A stretch of 64,000 bases of DNA from a virus (Duplodnaviria > Caudoviricetes), in IMG/VR virus record IMGVR_UViG_3300042970_000025. One strand, given 5' to 3'. Positions 1 through 64,000 of the stretch are shown in pieces. Made by a program: the position numbers and the translations under genes. The stretch's first letter is position 1. Each line of letters begins with the position of its first letter. Below the pieces are notes generated by a model. That model ran no database searches and was not told where the DNA came from. It worked only from the letters and a program-made list of their open reading frames with translations.

Positions 1-30
1 GAAAGAGGCTTTTACCGTCATCCTCAGGAC

Positions 31-106
31 AAAAATAAAAAAAACGGCAGGCAGTTATCTTTTGCAAAAGGAAAACTTCCTATTGCTTTTGATATCTGTC
101 TGCCGG
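31..106 (-). terminator. Intrinsic terminator in leader of element A
   Basis: Arms cggcaggcagttatc / gatatctgtctgccg, followed on the minus strand by a T-tract (plus-strand aaaaataaaaaaaa). Confidence 0.65.
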
Positions 107-226
107 ATTCTTCACGGTGCTCTGCGCTGTTGCGCTGCCGAGTTCAATACTTCGTGCAAACTTATGCTGCAGATTAGCTCTTCGCGGTTCTCTGCCGGGT
201 TCAGCTCATATACTGCAAGCAATTAT

Positions 227-418
227 TTATTTTTTCAGATGGGCGGGTGATTTGCTGGAATGCCTTAGAATCTCAACCGTTACTTTTCCATCCATGACTT
301 CATAGTTAAGTAGGGCCCCGCATTTCGGGCAGGACGTTTCAGTGTTTGTCCCGTCGCCGGAACGCCCCAGCTTATACCCGCATTCGGGGCAGGTGGTGAA
401 GAGCTTCATTGTGATCAA
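227..418 (-). CDS. Small zinc-ribbon protein (CPECG...CPKCG)
   Basis: Two CxxC motifs; conserved in the second copy; directly downstream of lexA. Confidence 0.85.
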   Translation of the reverse strand: MITMKLFTTCPECGYKLGRSGDGTNTETSCPKCGALLNYEVMDGKVTVEILRHSSKSPAHLKK

Positions 419-431
419 TCCCCCAATCTGT

Positions 432-1037
432 TCAATTTATGTTTTTTAACACATTTACGGCTATGCCCTGGATAATGCAGTGCTCAACATAGATGTCATT
501 CATCTCCTTATTTTCTGGATGAAGGCGGATGAGCTTTTTCTTAGGCTCCGGATAAAAACGTTTTAAGGTTGCATCTTCATCGATCAGAGCAACAACAATC
601 TGTCCAGGCTCTGCTGCGTTTTGCTTTTTGATGAGAACAAGATCGCCGTTATTGATTCCAGCATCAATCATTGAATTGCCTTTTGCGTGAAGCAGAAAGA
701 AATCGCCTTTGCCGAAAAGGGAAACCGGTAAGGGGATATATTTTTCGATATTGCCTTCAGCGTACTTCGGGATGCCGCAGGCAATGCTTCCAAGAAGCGG
801 GACTAACACAGTGGACTCTTTTTCTTCTTTCATTTTCGGTGTTATGATTCCCCGATGTCCTTTATATTCGATCTTGCCTTCTTTGCGAAGGTCCTGCAGG
901 TAGCGGGAGACCGTAGCAGTAGAAACACCTGTTCCTGCTGCGATGATCCGGTTTGTTGGAGAAACTCCATGCTCTTCCCGGTAGTCATCGATGAAGGAAA
1001 GTAAGGTTTTGTAGTACTCCTGGCTCTTTAACTTCAA
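432..1037 (-). CDS. lexA: LexA-family repressor (wHTH + S24 peptidase)
   Basis: LLGSIACGIP cleavage region, GNSM Ser, TLKRF Lys; likely TTG start at 1037 after AAGGAGG (ORF track starts at 1079). Confidence 0.9.
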   Translation of the reverse strand: MKLKSQEYYKTLLSFIDDYREEHGVSPTNRIIAAGTGVSTATVSRYLQDLRKEGKIEYKGHRGIITPKMKEEKESTVLVPLLGSIACGIPKYAEGNIEKYIPLPVSLFGKGDFFLLHAKGNSMIDAGINNGDLVLIKKQNAAEPGQIVVALIDEDATLKRFYPEPKKKLIRLHPENKEMNDIYVEHCIIQGIAVNVLKNIN

Positions 1038-1084
1038 CTCTTGTCCTCCTTTCTTAGCGTAAGAATAAGTACCTTGCATCTACT

Positions 1085-1112
1085 ATTATACGAACAAACG
1101 TTCAGTCGTCAA
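1085..1112 (-). promoter_or_regulatory. SigA promoter TTGACG-N16-TATAAT with SOS (Cheo) box GAAC-aaac-GTTC at 1092-1103 in the spacer
   Basis: Direct motif match upstream of lexA; GAAC-N4-GTTC is the established Bacillota LexA box. Confidence 0.85.
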
Positions 1113-23417: not shown

Positions 23418-24989
23418 TCAAATCCTTTCCGTTAAATCGAGTCCGCATTTTAGTTCGAACGTAAGTTCATTTCTAGACTTTACTATGATTTTGCTTACAA
23501 ACTTTTCAAAAAGCTCTTCGTCGAAATCATCCAGCATGACACCTTTTTCGGTGAAGCGCAGGAGCGCAAAGGCAGAGGATGCTATAGCGGCTTTACTGCT
23601 TGCCGAATGGGAAAGCGTTTCTTTTTCCTTCCGGAGCGCTCCAGCTTCCTTTCTAAGGGCATTTGTTTCCTTTAGGCAGATCGCCTGACTGATGATGCCA
23701 TCTGCCAATAGTTTTGTCAGGGTTTCCCGCTTTTCTGTGTTTTGCGCAAGATCGGTTTCGATCTGCTGGATTCTTCGGAGAGCGTCGTCTCTAGAGGAAC
23801 TTCGGAGCGCCGCCGCATAAGGGCGGAGAATGGTTCTCCTGGAGAAAACGAGTTTGTTCAGCATCGTGACAAAGGCGTATTGAATCGCATCGTCCCGGAT
23901 AAACTTCATGCTGCATTGCTTTTTATCTGTGATGTGAGTCTGGCAGCTCCAGACCGCGTAACGGTTTAGACTGCTGGAGCAGATCCTTCTTCGAAACACG
24001 CTGCCGCACTCTCCGCAGATAATTTTTCCGGAAAAAGGGTAGCGCTTCTGGTATTTACGGCCTTGCCTTTGGATTCCTTTTTCTTCTGCATGCTGCTGAA
24101 TCAGTCTTTGCGCAGCATCAAACTCTTCATGGCTGATGATCGCCTCGTGGTGGTTATGGCAGAGGTACATCGTCTGTTCTCCATGATTGTGGTGCCGGTT
24201 AAACTGCGAATCGGTCCAGGTCTTTTGAAACAGGCAGTCACCGGTGTATTTTTCATTTGTGAGCATTCCTCTAATGGTACTTTCCGACCATTTGCCGCCA
24301 CGTCTACTTGGGATCTTCTTTTCATTCAGATCCTTTGCGATGGCGGTCATTCCTTTCCCTGAAAGAAGAGAAGTGAAGATCCCTTTTACAATTTCCGCCT
24401 GTGCAGGATTCACAGACATCTTTCCATCTTTCCAGTCGTAGCCGTAGGGCACGCTGCCTGCCTTAAAGGTGCCGCTTTCAAACCGCTTTTGAATGGACCA
24501 TTTGCTGTTCTGAGAAATGGATGAGGACTCATCCTGGGCCATACTCGAGAGAAGGGAAAGAAGCAGCTCGCTTTCCATAGTTCCGGTGTCGATGTTTTCT
24601 TTTTCAAACCAGATCGGAATATGCAGAGACAAAAGTTCACGTACAAGCTGAAGACAGTCTGCCGTATTCCTTGAGAAACGGCTGATTGACTTGGTGATCA
24701 CGAAGTCGATTTTTCCTTTTCTGCAGTCTTGCATTAAACGCATCAATTCCGGGCGCTTGTCTTTCTTTGTCCCGCTGATGCCTTCGTCAAAGTAAAGCCC
24801 TGCAAACACAAGATCAGGTCTTGCTGCGATGTAGCTTTCGTAGTGTTGTTTCTGGGTTTCTAAGCTTTCCAGCTGCGCGTCCATATCGGTGGATACGCGG
24901 CAGTAGGCTGCCGTCCGAAGTTTCTCTGGCTTTGCTCTTGTTTCTTCTATTTTCGTTACTTTCTTCAATGCTTTTTCCTCCTTTTTCAT
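23418..24989 (-). CDS. Large serine recombinase
   Basis: [24 protein letters not shown] Zn ribbon. Confidence 0.95.
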   Translation of the reverse strand: MKKEEKALKKVTKIEETRAKPEKLRTAAYCRVSTDMDAQLESLETQKQHYESYIAARPDLVFAGLYFDEGISGTKKDKRPELMRLMQDCRKGKIDFVITKSISRFSRNTADCLQLVRELLSLHIPIWFEKENIDTGTMESELLLSLLSSMAQDESSSISQNSKWSIQKRFESGTFKAGSVPYGYDWKDGKMSVNPAQAEIVKGIFTSLLSGKGMTAIAKDLNEKKIPSRRGGKWSESTIRGMLTNEKYTGDCLFQKTWTDSQFNRHHNHGEQTMYLCHNHHEAIISHEEFDAAQRLIQQHAEEKGIQRQGRKYQKRYPFSGKIICGECGSVFRRRICSSSLNRYAVWSCQTHITDKKQCSMKFIRDDAIQYAFVTMLNKLVFSRRTILRPYAAALRSSSRDDALRRIQQIETDLAQNTEKRETLTKLLADGIISQAICLKETNALRKEAGALRKEKETLSHSASSKAAIASSAFALLRFTEKGVMLDDFDEELFEKFVSKIIVKSRNELTFELKCGLDLTERI

Positions 24990-56058: not shown

Positions 56059-56157
56059 GGCTTCTCCTTTCGGGCAAAAGAAAACCTCGCAAGGGGATTT
56101 CCTTACGAGGCTGCTTTATCCTAACTTTCTACACTATCATTTTACTATTTCTTGAGG

Positions 56158-56214
56158 TGCACTCAAGTGAAGTGAACTGCACATGACTGCACTCAACTGC
56201 ACTTAACTGCACTC
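56158..56214. repeat. Tandem 10-bp repeats (tgcactcaac-like, about 6 units) upstream of the late operon
   Basis: tgcactcaag tgaagtgaac tgcacatgac tgcactcaac tgcacttaac tgcactc. Confidence 0.8.
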
Positions 56215-56634
56215 TTCGTTGATGACCCGGTCCAGCTCTTCAAGTGCGTAACCGTGAAGGGAGTAAACCCAGCGGAGGGAATAGAACATGTTTAAAGAGA
56301 TCTCTTCCCAGGACTCGTTCTTAAAGTAACGGGAGATTAAAACCGTCTGGTAGTCTGGTTCCTTGATCCTTCCAATGTAGTCCAGAGCCTCGGTCTTCCT
56401 TTCCGTCAGTTCATCCTCATCGCTTTTAATTTCTTCTTCTAAGCTCAGCATCTTCACGATGGTTTCTTCCAGGCGGGAAGAATCATGGTTTGAGGCCGTT
56501 GGCAGGTCAGAGAAAGCAGGGGAGCTGACGGAGCGGGCCAGGTCCTGCATGATCGTTAATCGCTCCTTCTTTGCCTTGATCCTGGCTTCCTCTCGGGACA
56601 GTCCCCTTAGATATTCTTTTGCATTCATAAGCAT
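56203..56634 (-). CDS. Late transcriptional activator (ArpU/RinA/DUF1492-like)
   Basis: AKEYL..VLISRYF..SWEEIS..YSLRWVYSLHGYAL; last gene before packaging. Confidence 0.75.
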   Translation of the reverse strand: MLMNAKEYLRGLSREEARIKAKKERLTIMQDLARSVSSPAFSDLPTASNHDSSRLEETIVKMLSLEEEIKSDEDELTERKTEALDYIGRIKEPDYQTVLISRYFKNESWEEISLNMFYSLRWVYSLHGYALEELDRVINEECS

Positions 56635-58186: not shown

Positions 58187-58448
58187 CTAAAATTCCTCCA
58201 ATCTGTTCTGGCTGATCGATTAAGTAAACAGAAAAGCCAAGATCTTCAAGCTGGCGTTTTCTTTTTAGCTGAAGAGGCCGCATCTTCTTTCTAGGGGCTT
58301 TCAGCTCGACAAAGGCTATATTGCCTTCCGGCAGTAAAACGATCCGGTCTGGTACTCCGCTTAGGCCGGGAGAGATAAATTTCAGTGCTAGGCCTCCCAT
58401 GCCTTTAACTTCCCGTCGCAGTTTCTCTTCGATTTCTTTTTCTTTCAT
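58167..58448 (-). CDS. VRR-NUC nuclease
   Basis: GVPDRI..FVELKAP..Q. Confidence 0.9.
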   Translation of the reverse strand: MKEKEIEEKLRREVKGMGGLALKFISPGLSGVPDRIVLLPEGNIAFVELKAPRKKMRPLQLKRKRQLEDLGFSVYLIDQPEQIGGILDEIQSS

Positions 58449-59218
58449 ATCGTCCTTTCCGTGTTCCAGTGATCCAGTGATCCACGTTTTCCTCTATATA
58501 TCGTATATATGTATATATATTCTATATACTCTATATTTATATATATTATTTTTAATAGAATATAGTGGAACAGTGGATCAGTAAGCGCTGAAACACTTGT
58601 AGTTACTAATATCTAGCATGATCCAGTTTTGTTGTTCCGGTCTGGATCAGACTGGAATGGATCACGATCCAGTAATCCAGACCGGATTGCTTTTCACCCG
58701 ATTAGAATTTATGGCTGGATGCGTTCAGATGGAAGGTAAACCCACTGCGAACCATAGAGTGGAAGGCGGATTTTCTTTTCATAAACGATCCACTTAGGCT
58801 AGAAGAGATAAACTTCAGCGCTAAGCCTCCCATGGTTTATGTCTTCTTGCGAAGCCTCGCTTCGATTTCTTTTTCTTTCATATCGTCCTTTCTCTGTTCC
58901 AGTGTTCCACTAAATTCCCATTAATTTAGAAAAGGGTATATATGGTTATATATGTGTCCTATATGACCTATTTCTATGTTTTTTATTTTTAATAGAAAAT
59001 AGTGGAACAGTGGAACAGGATGTGCTGAAACACTTGTAATTACTAACTTCTAGCATGTTCCAGTATTGCTGTTCCGGTCTGGATCAGACTGGAATGGAAC
59101 ACGATTCAGTGATCCAGACCGGATTGTTTTTCGGCCGACTGGAACTTATGGACGAAGGCGTTCAGGTGGTATGTAAACCCACTGAGAGCCATAGAGTGGA
59201 ATGCGGATTTTCTTTTCG
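58359..59218. repeat. Diverged tandem duplication (~430-bp unit) of VRR-NUC 5' end + ori-like region + virE 3' end
   Basis: 58359-58779 aligns with 58791-59218. Confidence 0.85.
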
Positions 59219-62234: not shown

Positions 62235-62933
62235 TTAGAAATTCCGCACGTGTTTTTTGAGCTCCGGGTCCTGCCTGAGCCTTTCGTAGATCCTCTTGAC
62301 CTTCCTCTGGATGACCCGCTCGTTCCGGCTTTTCATCCTGGCGTAGTTTGCGGCGGAGTGGTGCTCCAGAATCACATACTGAAAGATCTCCTGGTCTTCC
62401 TTACTAAGCGTACTTACGACTTCAAGGATCCGATCAAAGGCAGAGCCCTGGGTCTCGTTAAAATTCCAAAGGTCAAAGAGGGCAGAGGACTTGTCGCTGC
62501 AGCCTTCTTCTTCATCCGATGACAGGATCCGGTCTAAGGAATCAGTCCAGTTCTTTGGGAAGGCTTCTTTTACCGCTTCCTCAACGTATTCAGAAGATGG
62601 GGCGTAGCCGTGATCACGCATGAAGTTTTTGATGAACGCTTCTTTCCAGCCTTCCATTTCTCTTTTTTCTTGATCGCTGCGGTTTGGCCTTCTTGCTTTC
62701 AAGTTGTAGTAAACTTCTGAATCCTCGATCGAGTAGAGGGCTTTGATGTCTTCTTCTTTGACTCCGTCCTGGCCCGGGATGATTTCGAATTCTTCGATGA
62801 AATCAACATTTCTTCCTTCGTGCTGCTCACGCATTGGGAATTTGTAGGTGTAGGAATAACGCTTCTTCTGATCGGTCTTTCTAAGCTGATCAGCTTTGTT
62901 TTCTGTATGGACATAAACTTGTTTCCTTTTCAT
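62235..62933 (-). CDS. Sigma-70 region-4-like HTH protein
   Basis: C-terminal VVSTLSKEDQEIF...SAANYAR...VIQRKVKRIYERLR; GGAGG RBS. Confidence 0.65.
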   Translation of the reverse strand: MKRKQVYVHTENKADQLRKTDQKKRYSYTYKFPMREQHEGRNVDFIEEFEIIPGQDGVKEEDIKALYSIEDSEVYYNLKARRPNRSDQEKREMEGWKEAFIKNFMRDHGYAPSSEYVEEAVKEAFPKNWTDSLDRILSSDEEEGCSDKSSALFDLWNFNETQGSAFDRILEVVSTLSKEDQEIFQYVILEHHSAANYARMKSRNERVIQRKVKRIYERLRQDPELKKHVRNF

Positions 62934-62967
62934 CGTGTTTCCTCCAGTCCATCCCGAACCGAAGGAA

Positions 62968-63037
62968 GCATGGCAAAAAGAGCATGGCAGGCCTCTTCGG
63001 AACGAGATATTACGTTTCGATACGGCCAGCCATGCTC
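62968..63037 (-). terminator. Second leader hairpin/terminator upstream of the sigma-like gene
   Basis: gagcatggcaggcc / ggccagccatgctc arms, TTTTT on the minus strand. Confidence 0.6.
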
Positions 63038-63142
63038 GTAGGCTGGGTTACTTTAATTTTGTTTCTCACCTCTGCTCGAGCCACCTCTGCGCGCCGGGGT
63101 GAACAGGTGTAAGAAAGAGACTTTTACCGTCATCCTCAGGAC

Positions 63143-63219
63143 AAAAACAAAAAACCGGCAGACAGTTATCTCGACGCAAAAGGAAAAACTTCCTATTGCT
63201 TTTGATATCTGTCTGCCGG
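63143..63219 (-). terminator. First leader terminator
   Basis: Perfect 11-bp arms ccggcagacag / ctgtctgccgg, then TTTTTTGTTTTT on the minus strand. Confidence 0.75.
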
Positions 63220-63340
63220 ATTCTTCACGGTGCTCTGCGCTGTTGCGCTGCCGAGTTCAATACTTCGTGCAAACTTGTGATGCAGCCAGGCTCTTAGCGG
63301 TTCTCTGCCGGGTTCAGCTCGTGTACTGCAAACCCCAATA

Positions 63341-63532
63341 TTATTTTTTCAGATGGGCGGGTGATTTATTGGAATGCCTTAGGATCTCAACCGTTACTTT
63401 TCCATCCATGACTTCATAGTTAAGTAGGGCCCCGCATTTTGGGCAGGACGTTTCAGTGTTTGTCCCATCGCCGGAACGCCCAAGTCTATACCCACATTCG
63501 GGGCAGGTGGTGAAGAGCTTCATTGTGATCAA
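63341..63532 (-). CDS. Small zinc-ribbon protein, copy 2
   Basis: 61/63 residues identical to 227-418. Confidence 0.85.
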   Translation of the reverse strand: MITMKLFTTCPECGYRLGRSGDGTNTETSCPKCGALLNYEVMDGKVTVEILRHSNKSPAHLKK

Positions 63533-63544
63533 TCCCCCAATCTG

Positions 63545-63579
63545 TTAGATGATGTCTTTTAACACTTTGACAGCGATGC
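63545..63579 (-). pseudogene. lexA: 3' tail of a second lexA-like gene cut by the IS
   Basis: Reads IAVKVLKDII* versus IAVNVLKNIN* in copy 1; similarity stops abruptly at 63580. Confidence 0.8.
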
Positions 63580-64000
63580 TACAATGGTCCCATAGGGTTG
63601 GACAGGTATTCGGAAAATTATCGTGAACATGGTAGAATAGCAGTAGAAGAAAGGAGCATCTGTCATGGCACGAAGGACGAATTACAGCCCCGATTTTAAA
63701 GCAAAGCTGGTCATTGAGATCCTAGAAGGTGAGAAAACACTGAATGAGGTTGCAGCCAGTCATAACCTGAACCCGAATATGGTTCGGAGTTGGAAGAAAG
63801 AGTTCATAGAGAATGCGGGACGAGTCTTCAATGAACGTCAGTCGGAGAAGGAAATCCGCAGAAAGGAGGAGGACCTGGAACGGGATCGCGAGAGAATGCT
63901 GAAAACCATTGGTCAGCTCACCTTGGAACGTGATTTCCTCCAGGATTGCTTTCGCGAAACTGGATATCCCGTCCCGGATGTTGATAAAGAGAAATTCTGA
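63580..64000 (+). mobile_element. IS3-family element, left end and orfA (63665-64000)
   Basis: YSPDFKAKLVIE..TLNEVA..VRSWKK HTH, IGQLTLERDFL zipper; end tacaatggtcccatagggttggaca resembles IS3/IS150-type IRs. Confidence 0.85.

Follow-up and report, generated by a model that had tools for sequence, protein, structure and literature searches.

The window, as we call the whole 64,000-nt stretch of DNA analyzed, contains on its minus strand a temperate Bacillota prophage that spans 21439 to about 63580 and carries genes for serine recombinases, DNA polymerase, a DUF2800-type exonuclease, head and tail proteins, VapE, and a SNF2 helicase. The candidate switch region is the control region heading this first prophage (copy 2, about 62235-63584), and positions 1-1100 are the head of a second, related element (copy 1). 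The features of the two copies are as follows.

63585-64000, plus strand: IS3-family element with its left end at about 63585; the transposase gene orfA (63665-64000; Pfam HTH_Tnp_1, E 1e-10) continues past the window, and the element separates copy 2 from lexA and the SOS promoter.
63545-63584, minus strand: 3' tail (about the last 12 codons) of a lexA-like gene, resembling the lexA tails of copy 1, L048, and L051.
63341-63523, minus strand: zinc-ribbon gene (60 aa, CxxC-x16-CxxC, five beta strands), a candidate RNA-binding antiterminator.
63278-63335, minus strand: RNA unit 1, with an outer stem, a GCT/AGC stem, a GAA/AAG internal loop, a CGG/CCG stem, and a 7-nt loop; it overlaps no terminator and belongs to the model training set.
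63208-63276, minus strand: RNA unit 2 (antiterminator), in which 63266-63274 pairs with 63211-63218; it has an ATT/AAT stem, a GAA/AAG loop, a CGG/CCG stem, and a small extra hairpin.
63143-63223, minus strand: terminator T1, with its 5' arm (63209-63219) being the 3' strand of unit 2, its 3' arm at 63155-63165, and its U-tract at 63143-63154.
62953-63114, minus strand: probable divergent DUF2800 RNA (Rfam RF02960; 15.2 bits against a cut-off of 60.2, E 3.9); its stem at 62981-63037 plus five U is the second terminator of the initial annotation, and its 3' arm is duplicated at 62967-62974.
62937-62967, minus strand: hairpin in the minimum-energy fold, predicted to bury the Shine-Dalgarno sequence of the sigma-like gene.
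62235-62933, minus strand: sigma-70 region-4-like activator gene (232 aa; PHROG 1740, E 3.6e-6; no Pfam match), heading the replication operon; PF08281 genes occupy the same slot elsewhere.
1085-1112, minus strand: copy 1 promoter, TTGACG-16 nt-TATAAT, with an SOS box (GAAC-N4-GTTC, 1092-1103) within the spacer between -35 and -10.
432-1079, minus strand: intact copy 1 lexA-like gene, with HTH and S24 peptidase domain matches.
227-409, minus strand: copy 1 zinc-ribbon gene.
30-222, minus strand: both RNA units of copy 1, with unit 2 at 95-163, together with terminator T1.

The gene order in copy 1 and other assemblies is SOS-boxed promoter, lexA-like gene, zinc ribbon, leader, and sigma-like gene, and the intact series of lexA, zinc ribbon, and leader is also found in L048-L052. 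The initial annotation placed lexA upstream of the copy 2 zinc ribbon, which holds for the last 12 or so codons only; an intact lexA is not upstream there because the IS3 element abuts, and the full order is that of copy 1 and L048-L052. This insertion, near the lexA-like 3' end, is missing from the related assemblies L048-L052. It probably disconnects the copy 2 switch from its own promoter, and the copy 2 switch itself may be disabled by it. The statement that the window has no cI/cro pair is weakened, since the LexA-like protein is of the HTH-S24 self-cleaving repressor type. Elsewhere in the window, a cargo block (1342-21345, plus strand) is headed by a WYL-domain gene divergent from lexA, and in L048 a WYL gene stands at the head of a type I restriction system. 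A block of about 300 nt is duplicated at 58440-59150; it runs from the end of vapE through an AT-rich region with hairpins into the beginning of the endonuclease gene and appears origin-like. Four GTGCAGT repeats at the end of an ArpU-like regulator gene (about 56160-56215, minus strand), followed by a promoter-like stretch and a terminator, are a candidate late operator.

The zinc-ribbon gene encodes 60 aa from the ATG at 63523; the 63 aa given earlier are obtained only when counting from an upstream TTG. A search of 1.8 billion representatives found about 100 small proteins related to it, in which the four cysteines are invariant and have the spacing CxxC-x16-CxxC; double-domain versions are among them. 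The predicted structure is all-beta with five strands (pLDDT 82), and a structure search with this model returned generic matches only (best Z 4.1; LysW, Z 3.9). The best PHROG match is annotated as a translational regulator (E 8e-5). Some relatives match Pfam Com or Cys_rich_KTR; Com (PF10122) is matched by 12 of 63 relatives at E<=0.01 and does not appear among the best 25 Pfam matches listed for the window protein. The family profile reaches 94% against Mu Com in hhalign, and because unrelated zinc-ribbon controls reach 96-97%, Com serves as an analogy rather than as a demonstrated relative.

Downstream of this gene lie the RNA units. Each unit is about 55 nt long and consists of an outer stem, an A-rich bulge, a 3-bp stem, a purine-rich internal loop (G[A/G/U]A-YY facing NN-A[A/G/U]G), a 3-bp inner stem, and a variable apical loop or hairpin of 6-90 nt, mostly ending in G-N-A. 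The core 12-mers reported at 63305-63316 and 63248-63259, and at 192-203 and 135-146 in copy 1, are all present, with no further match in the window. Their retention in both copies says little on its own because the copies are close relatives, and the evidence comes from distant homologs. The alignment of the two repeats on AGAGC had to be abandoned: in unit 1, AGAGC (63290-63294) is the internal-loop/stem strand, and in unit 2 (63232-63236) it occupies a different position. The correct repeat register sets GAGAACCGCTAAGAGC against GAGCACCGTGAAGAAT.

When 21 units were aligned by MAFFT without guidance, RNAalifold recovered the same three stems, and double-sided changes were found in 10 of the 11 base pairs (for example, UA in 16 and CG in 5 units, with none broken). 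The true register was 78% paired with a covariation of 0.47, compared with at most 46% and 0.18 for slid registers. The shuffle and slid-register controls take no account of kinship among the units, so units held out of training are the stronger test; in eight such units, 45 of 48 core pairs are intact, and previously unseen pair types appear, among them GGG/CCC and CCT/AGG. Structural covariation in homologous leaders, proposed earlier as a check, was observed in the unit stems and held up in the held-out loci. The protein tree had too little resolution for a count of independent compensatory events or for a protein-RNA code to be derived. Three internal-loop bases (G, A, and A) are invariant in 29 of 29 units, and the fourth, G, is present in 28. 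Rfam contains no family for the units (window and 36 loci at the cut-off; leader and 14 loci by E-value). The units are very probably a real, conserved, and uncatalogued RNA of the antiterminator type.

The third CCGGCAG of the leader was correctly recognized as the 5' arm of a terminator; it is located at 63213-63219, in a hairpin of about -36 to -39 kcal/mol followed by the U-tract. A long hairpin followed by a U-tract is present in 19 of 19 loci (18 lineages), and its 3' arm pairs along 11-16 nt with the 3' strand of the last unit. As this strand is the 5' arm of the terminator, unit and intrinsic terminator exclude each other at every one of these 19 loci. The conserved antiterminator sequesters the 5' arm of the terminator. 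The terminator is the more stable fold in 18 of 19 loci (typically -8 to -20 kcal/mol for the unit and -21 to -50 for the terminator), so the default is predicted to be off, that is, termination. In the nascent leader of the window, the unit fold is not the minimum-energy structure even before the terminator can close.

The initial annotation had proposed another fold, with pairing between the upstream CCGGCAG copies and the terminator 3' arm. This fold is possible in the window (about -54 kcal/mol, against -52 for the unit 2 fold and -69 for the terminator fold), and duplexes of -10 to -12 kcal/mol occur in four loci. It is not conserved, however: the duplex energy varies between -1.7 and -12.4 kcal/mol over the 20 loci, half of which have values weaker than -6 kcal/mol, and the CCGGCAG bases instead form the covarying inner stem of the unit. 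We regard such a pairing as highly improbable.

The distribution of the units was analyzed from both the protein and the RNA side. Among 25 distinct Bacillota loci collected through the protein, 19 carry one to four units just past the zinc-ribbon stop codon, with the unit start at -11 to about 290 nt from that codon; this linkage is partly built in, as most loci came through the protein and only two matches are fully independent. No unit was detected beside six zinc-ribbon homologs (L177, L213, L224, L262, L210, and L259). RNA-first searches in about 530 genome scans gave seven matching genomes, six with the match beside a zinc-ribbon gene and one a false positive in a recombinase gene. Four of the six were already known, and both new ones have a zinc-ribbon gene immediately upstream; these numbers are small, and the RNA-first searches missed known loci. 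Two tandem zinc-ribbon genes with about four units were seen in L222 (4001-4790), and a fused double zinc ribbon with two units in L260 (4001-4500).

The constant companion of the units is the zinc-ribbon gene and not the sigma-like gene; the downstream genes differ (sigma-70 region-4 proteins, HTH_11, XRE, and a probable surface protein), and no gene other than the zinc ribbon is common to the loci. The repeat pattern as first described, used as a search key, gave almost only chance matches, and matches to other sequence patterns tried as keys fell inside coding sequence. BLAST against phage and plasmid records gave no useful match. No description of a zinc-ribbon/unit switch was found in the literature covered, with most subscription journals outside its scope.

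Of 20 loci, 10 have a Gram-positive SOS box no more than 250 nt from the first gene, compared with 0.39 expected. The boxed loci include L173 and L220, both of which have no lexA-like gene, and umuC/dinB-like genes are upstream in three further loci. In the window, SOS-like boxes were also seen at 23457-23468.

The leader continues beyond T1. The hairpin reported as a second terminator at 62968-63037 exists, at 62981-63037 with a 5-U tract, but it looks like part of a divergent DUF2800 RNA: the segment 62953-63114 aligns full length to this RNA with matching blocks, at a score below the cut-off, and in L214, which has the same layout, a true DUF2800 RNA member (83.8 bits) fills the slot. The second terminator probably belongs to such an RNA, judging from the alignment. 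Other loci fill the slot with other folds, and the downstream leader is therefore a separate, exchangeable layer. A different conserved leader of about 200 nt, starting with GCCTGAYATGCATTAAGGGC and having no Rfam match, occupies the slot before the sigma-like gene in L200 (2080-2280), L203, L204, L174, L220, and L265, and pemK RNA (RF02913) was seen downstream in two elements (L210, 306-401; L265, 4690-4750). At 62967-62988 of the window, the U-tract is flanked on both sides by a copy of the second hairpin's 3' arm (GCCATGCT); the second GCCATGCT copy touches the hairpin over the ribosome site, and this may be a second switch.

Terminator-like hairpins inside the operons were located at 56084, 51213, 46165, 33102, and 25244, with a weaker one at about 28185, in agreement with the initial annotation. 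Its suggestion that the read-through system covers them was not borne out, as no unit precedes any of them. A bipartite motif, GTACGGA and TTTGACGGA separated by about 12 nt, stands before gene blocks in three copies (62206, 30403, and 25237, minus strand), the first of which overlaps the end of the sigma-like gene itself. This motif may be a promoter used by the sigma-like protein.

The computation supports the conserved fold, the terminator overlap, the zinc-ribbon linkage, and the SOS-box enrichment. The series first proposed, from SOS input through the zinc ribbon and structured leader to antitermination before the sigma-like gene, is supported in its overall form by synteny, covariation, and SOS-box enrichment, and was corrected in its pairing and its extension to internal terminators. 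The arrangement is probably a protein-dependent local antitermination switch, in which the zinc ribbon is predicted to bind the units and block the terminator. The SOS-boxed promoter would transcribe the zinc-ribbon gene, in some cases after a lexA-like gene, followed by one to four units and the intrinsic terminator. Each unit would fold as it is transcribed, the outer stem of the last one holding the 5' arm of the terminator, and this weak unit would be displaced by the much stronger terminator, so that basal transcripts end at T1. Upon DNA damage, the promoter would open and the zinc-ribbon protein accumulate; it would bind the purine-rich internal loop and the flanking GAG-N-A bases and stabilize the unit fold, and polymerase would then continue into the DUF2800-like RNA and the sigma-like activator gene. 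With units in tandem, the threshold would be sharper. What we infer within this scheme is that termination occurs in vivo, that the zinc ribbon binds the units, that its effect is positive, and that there is cooperativity.

The units could also be loading sites or cis-acting RNAs that make polymerase terminator-resistant across the operon, in the style of lambda N/nut, conAn, put, or canT, with or without the zinc ribbon. Such systems are used by Gram-positive conjugative elements (PMC11658703, PMC8191782), several terminator-like hairpins within the operons have no preceding unit, and unit 1 overlaps no terminator. The exact overlap with one terminator arm in 19 of 19 loci is, on the other hand, the signature of a local switch, and short operons are controlled at some loci. 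The three-copy promoter-like motif offers downstream re-initiation, with which long-range antitermination would be unnecessary, and operon-wide action appears unlikely. The adjacent zinc ribbon is probably the reader of the conserved antiterminator RNA. A real antiterminator fold with another ligand, whether a host protein, another element-encoded protein, or a small molecule as in a riboswitch, is improbable: conserved internal-loop bases would suit any ligand, adjacent units are missing at some zinc-ribbon homologs, and in L262 a terminator with a similar arm comes after the next gene, but the zinc ribbon is the sole gene common to the loci, the independent RNA-first matches are linked to it, and in the KTR sister family a related protein goes with a separate RNA motif.

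The sign of regulation could be reversed, with the protein binding the terminated leader (titration or autoregulation) or favoring termination and keeping the element silent. The short T1-ended transcript carries both the gene and its sites, and extra units that have no terminator could serve as a sponge; however, binding of the covarying fold necessarily hides the 5' arm of the terminator, the terminator already wins unaided, and SOS control of a silencer is harder to account for. We give this negative or buffering role a low probability. Ribosome-coupled attenuation with the zinc-ribbon ORF as leader peptide, suggested by units that overlap or touch the stop codon in L215, L218, L219, and L269, is very unlikely, as the distance from stop to unit reaches about 290 nt elsewhere and four invariant cysteines and a folded beta structure are retained.

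Few protein families are known to antiterminate through leader RNA binding, and most are metabolic. If the proposed antitermination switch is true, a 60-aa zinc ribbon and its covarying RNA site would be a new antiterminator family, which would account for the silencing of a sigma-like activator until DNA damage in a common class of Bacillota prophages and integrative elements and would give a function to abundant unannotated small genes. The pair could also serve as a very small synthetic switch. More tentatively, and with chances slightly short of even, Com/KTR-like small zinc ribbons may form an unrecognized superfamily of antiterminators that bind RNA sequence-specifically, with a different leader RNA for each subfamily, and that turn inputs such as SOS into an on-switch with a threshold for Bacillota prophages and conjugative elements that have no classical cI/Cro pair.

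Several known systems resemble parts of this arrangement. As in conAn of pLS20 and canT of Tn916 (PMC8191782, PMC11658703), antitermination would take place in Bacillota mobile elements; those systems act on many terminators at a distance, whereas here the RNA overlaps one terminator. DUF2800 RNA (RF02960) appears to share the slot before the sigma-like gene, sequence blocks, and a two-hairpin layout with a U-tract, but the score is far under the cut-off and the match covers only the downstream third of the leader, excluding the units. Mu Com, which acts on mom (PMC6483171; PF10122), is a precedent for an RNA-binding protein of similar size (about 60 aa) and cysteine spacing (CxxC-x16-CxxC), encoded just upstream of its RNA target; unlike the proposed switch, Com activates translation and no terminator is involved. 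The Com SELEX core GAG(N)2CC is present in 9 of 29 units, always at the same place; most of these are relatives of the window, and both window units are included. The isolated GAG(N)2CC half bound little (PMC6483171), and this match is a weak lead.

Cys_rich_KTR (PF14205), another small zinc ribbon, is related to the family (95% in hhalign, over 53 columns) and likewise has a conserved motif at the gene end that is the 5' arm of a terminator. Its RNA motif is different, consisting of GAGCC repeats, and the unit model R1 finds nothing at KTR loci; the KTR motif and the GAGCC terminator arm are absent from the window system. In L233-L257, a GAGCC repeat is found at the end of the Cys_rich_KTR genes, and its final copy is the terminator 5' arm; no paper characterizing this sister system was found.

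Parallels in mode of action are the ANTAR and RAT systems. With ANTAR regulation (EutV; PMC3369931), the proposed switch shares tandem RNA sites, an alternative terminator fold, a default-off state, and protein binding that is presumed to give read-through. It differs in that no ANTAR domain (PF03861) was found in the zinc-ribbon protein or among the commonest Pfam matches of 63 family members, and in that ANTAR sites are two short hairpins with hexaloops (A1, G4), whereas the sites here are stem-internal-loop-stem units of about 55 nt; their conserved bases sit in the internal loop and their apical loops vary from 6 to 90 nt, so they are not ANTAR hairpins. The input also appears to be SOS-driven protein level rather than phosphorylation. 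The BglG/SacY/LicT antiterminators and their RAT sites (reviewed in PMC12591593) likewise rely on a weak hairpin, imperfect and interrupted by internal loops, with a 3' strand that overlaps the terminator. Here, in contrast, CAT and PRD domains (BglG/LicT type) are absent from the zinc-ribbon protein and from the Pfam matches of its family, the leader has no Rfam match to RAT either at the cut-off or by E-value, and the context is mobile elements instead of sugar uptake. The switch would work like ANTAR and LicT/RAT and belongs to neither.
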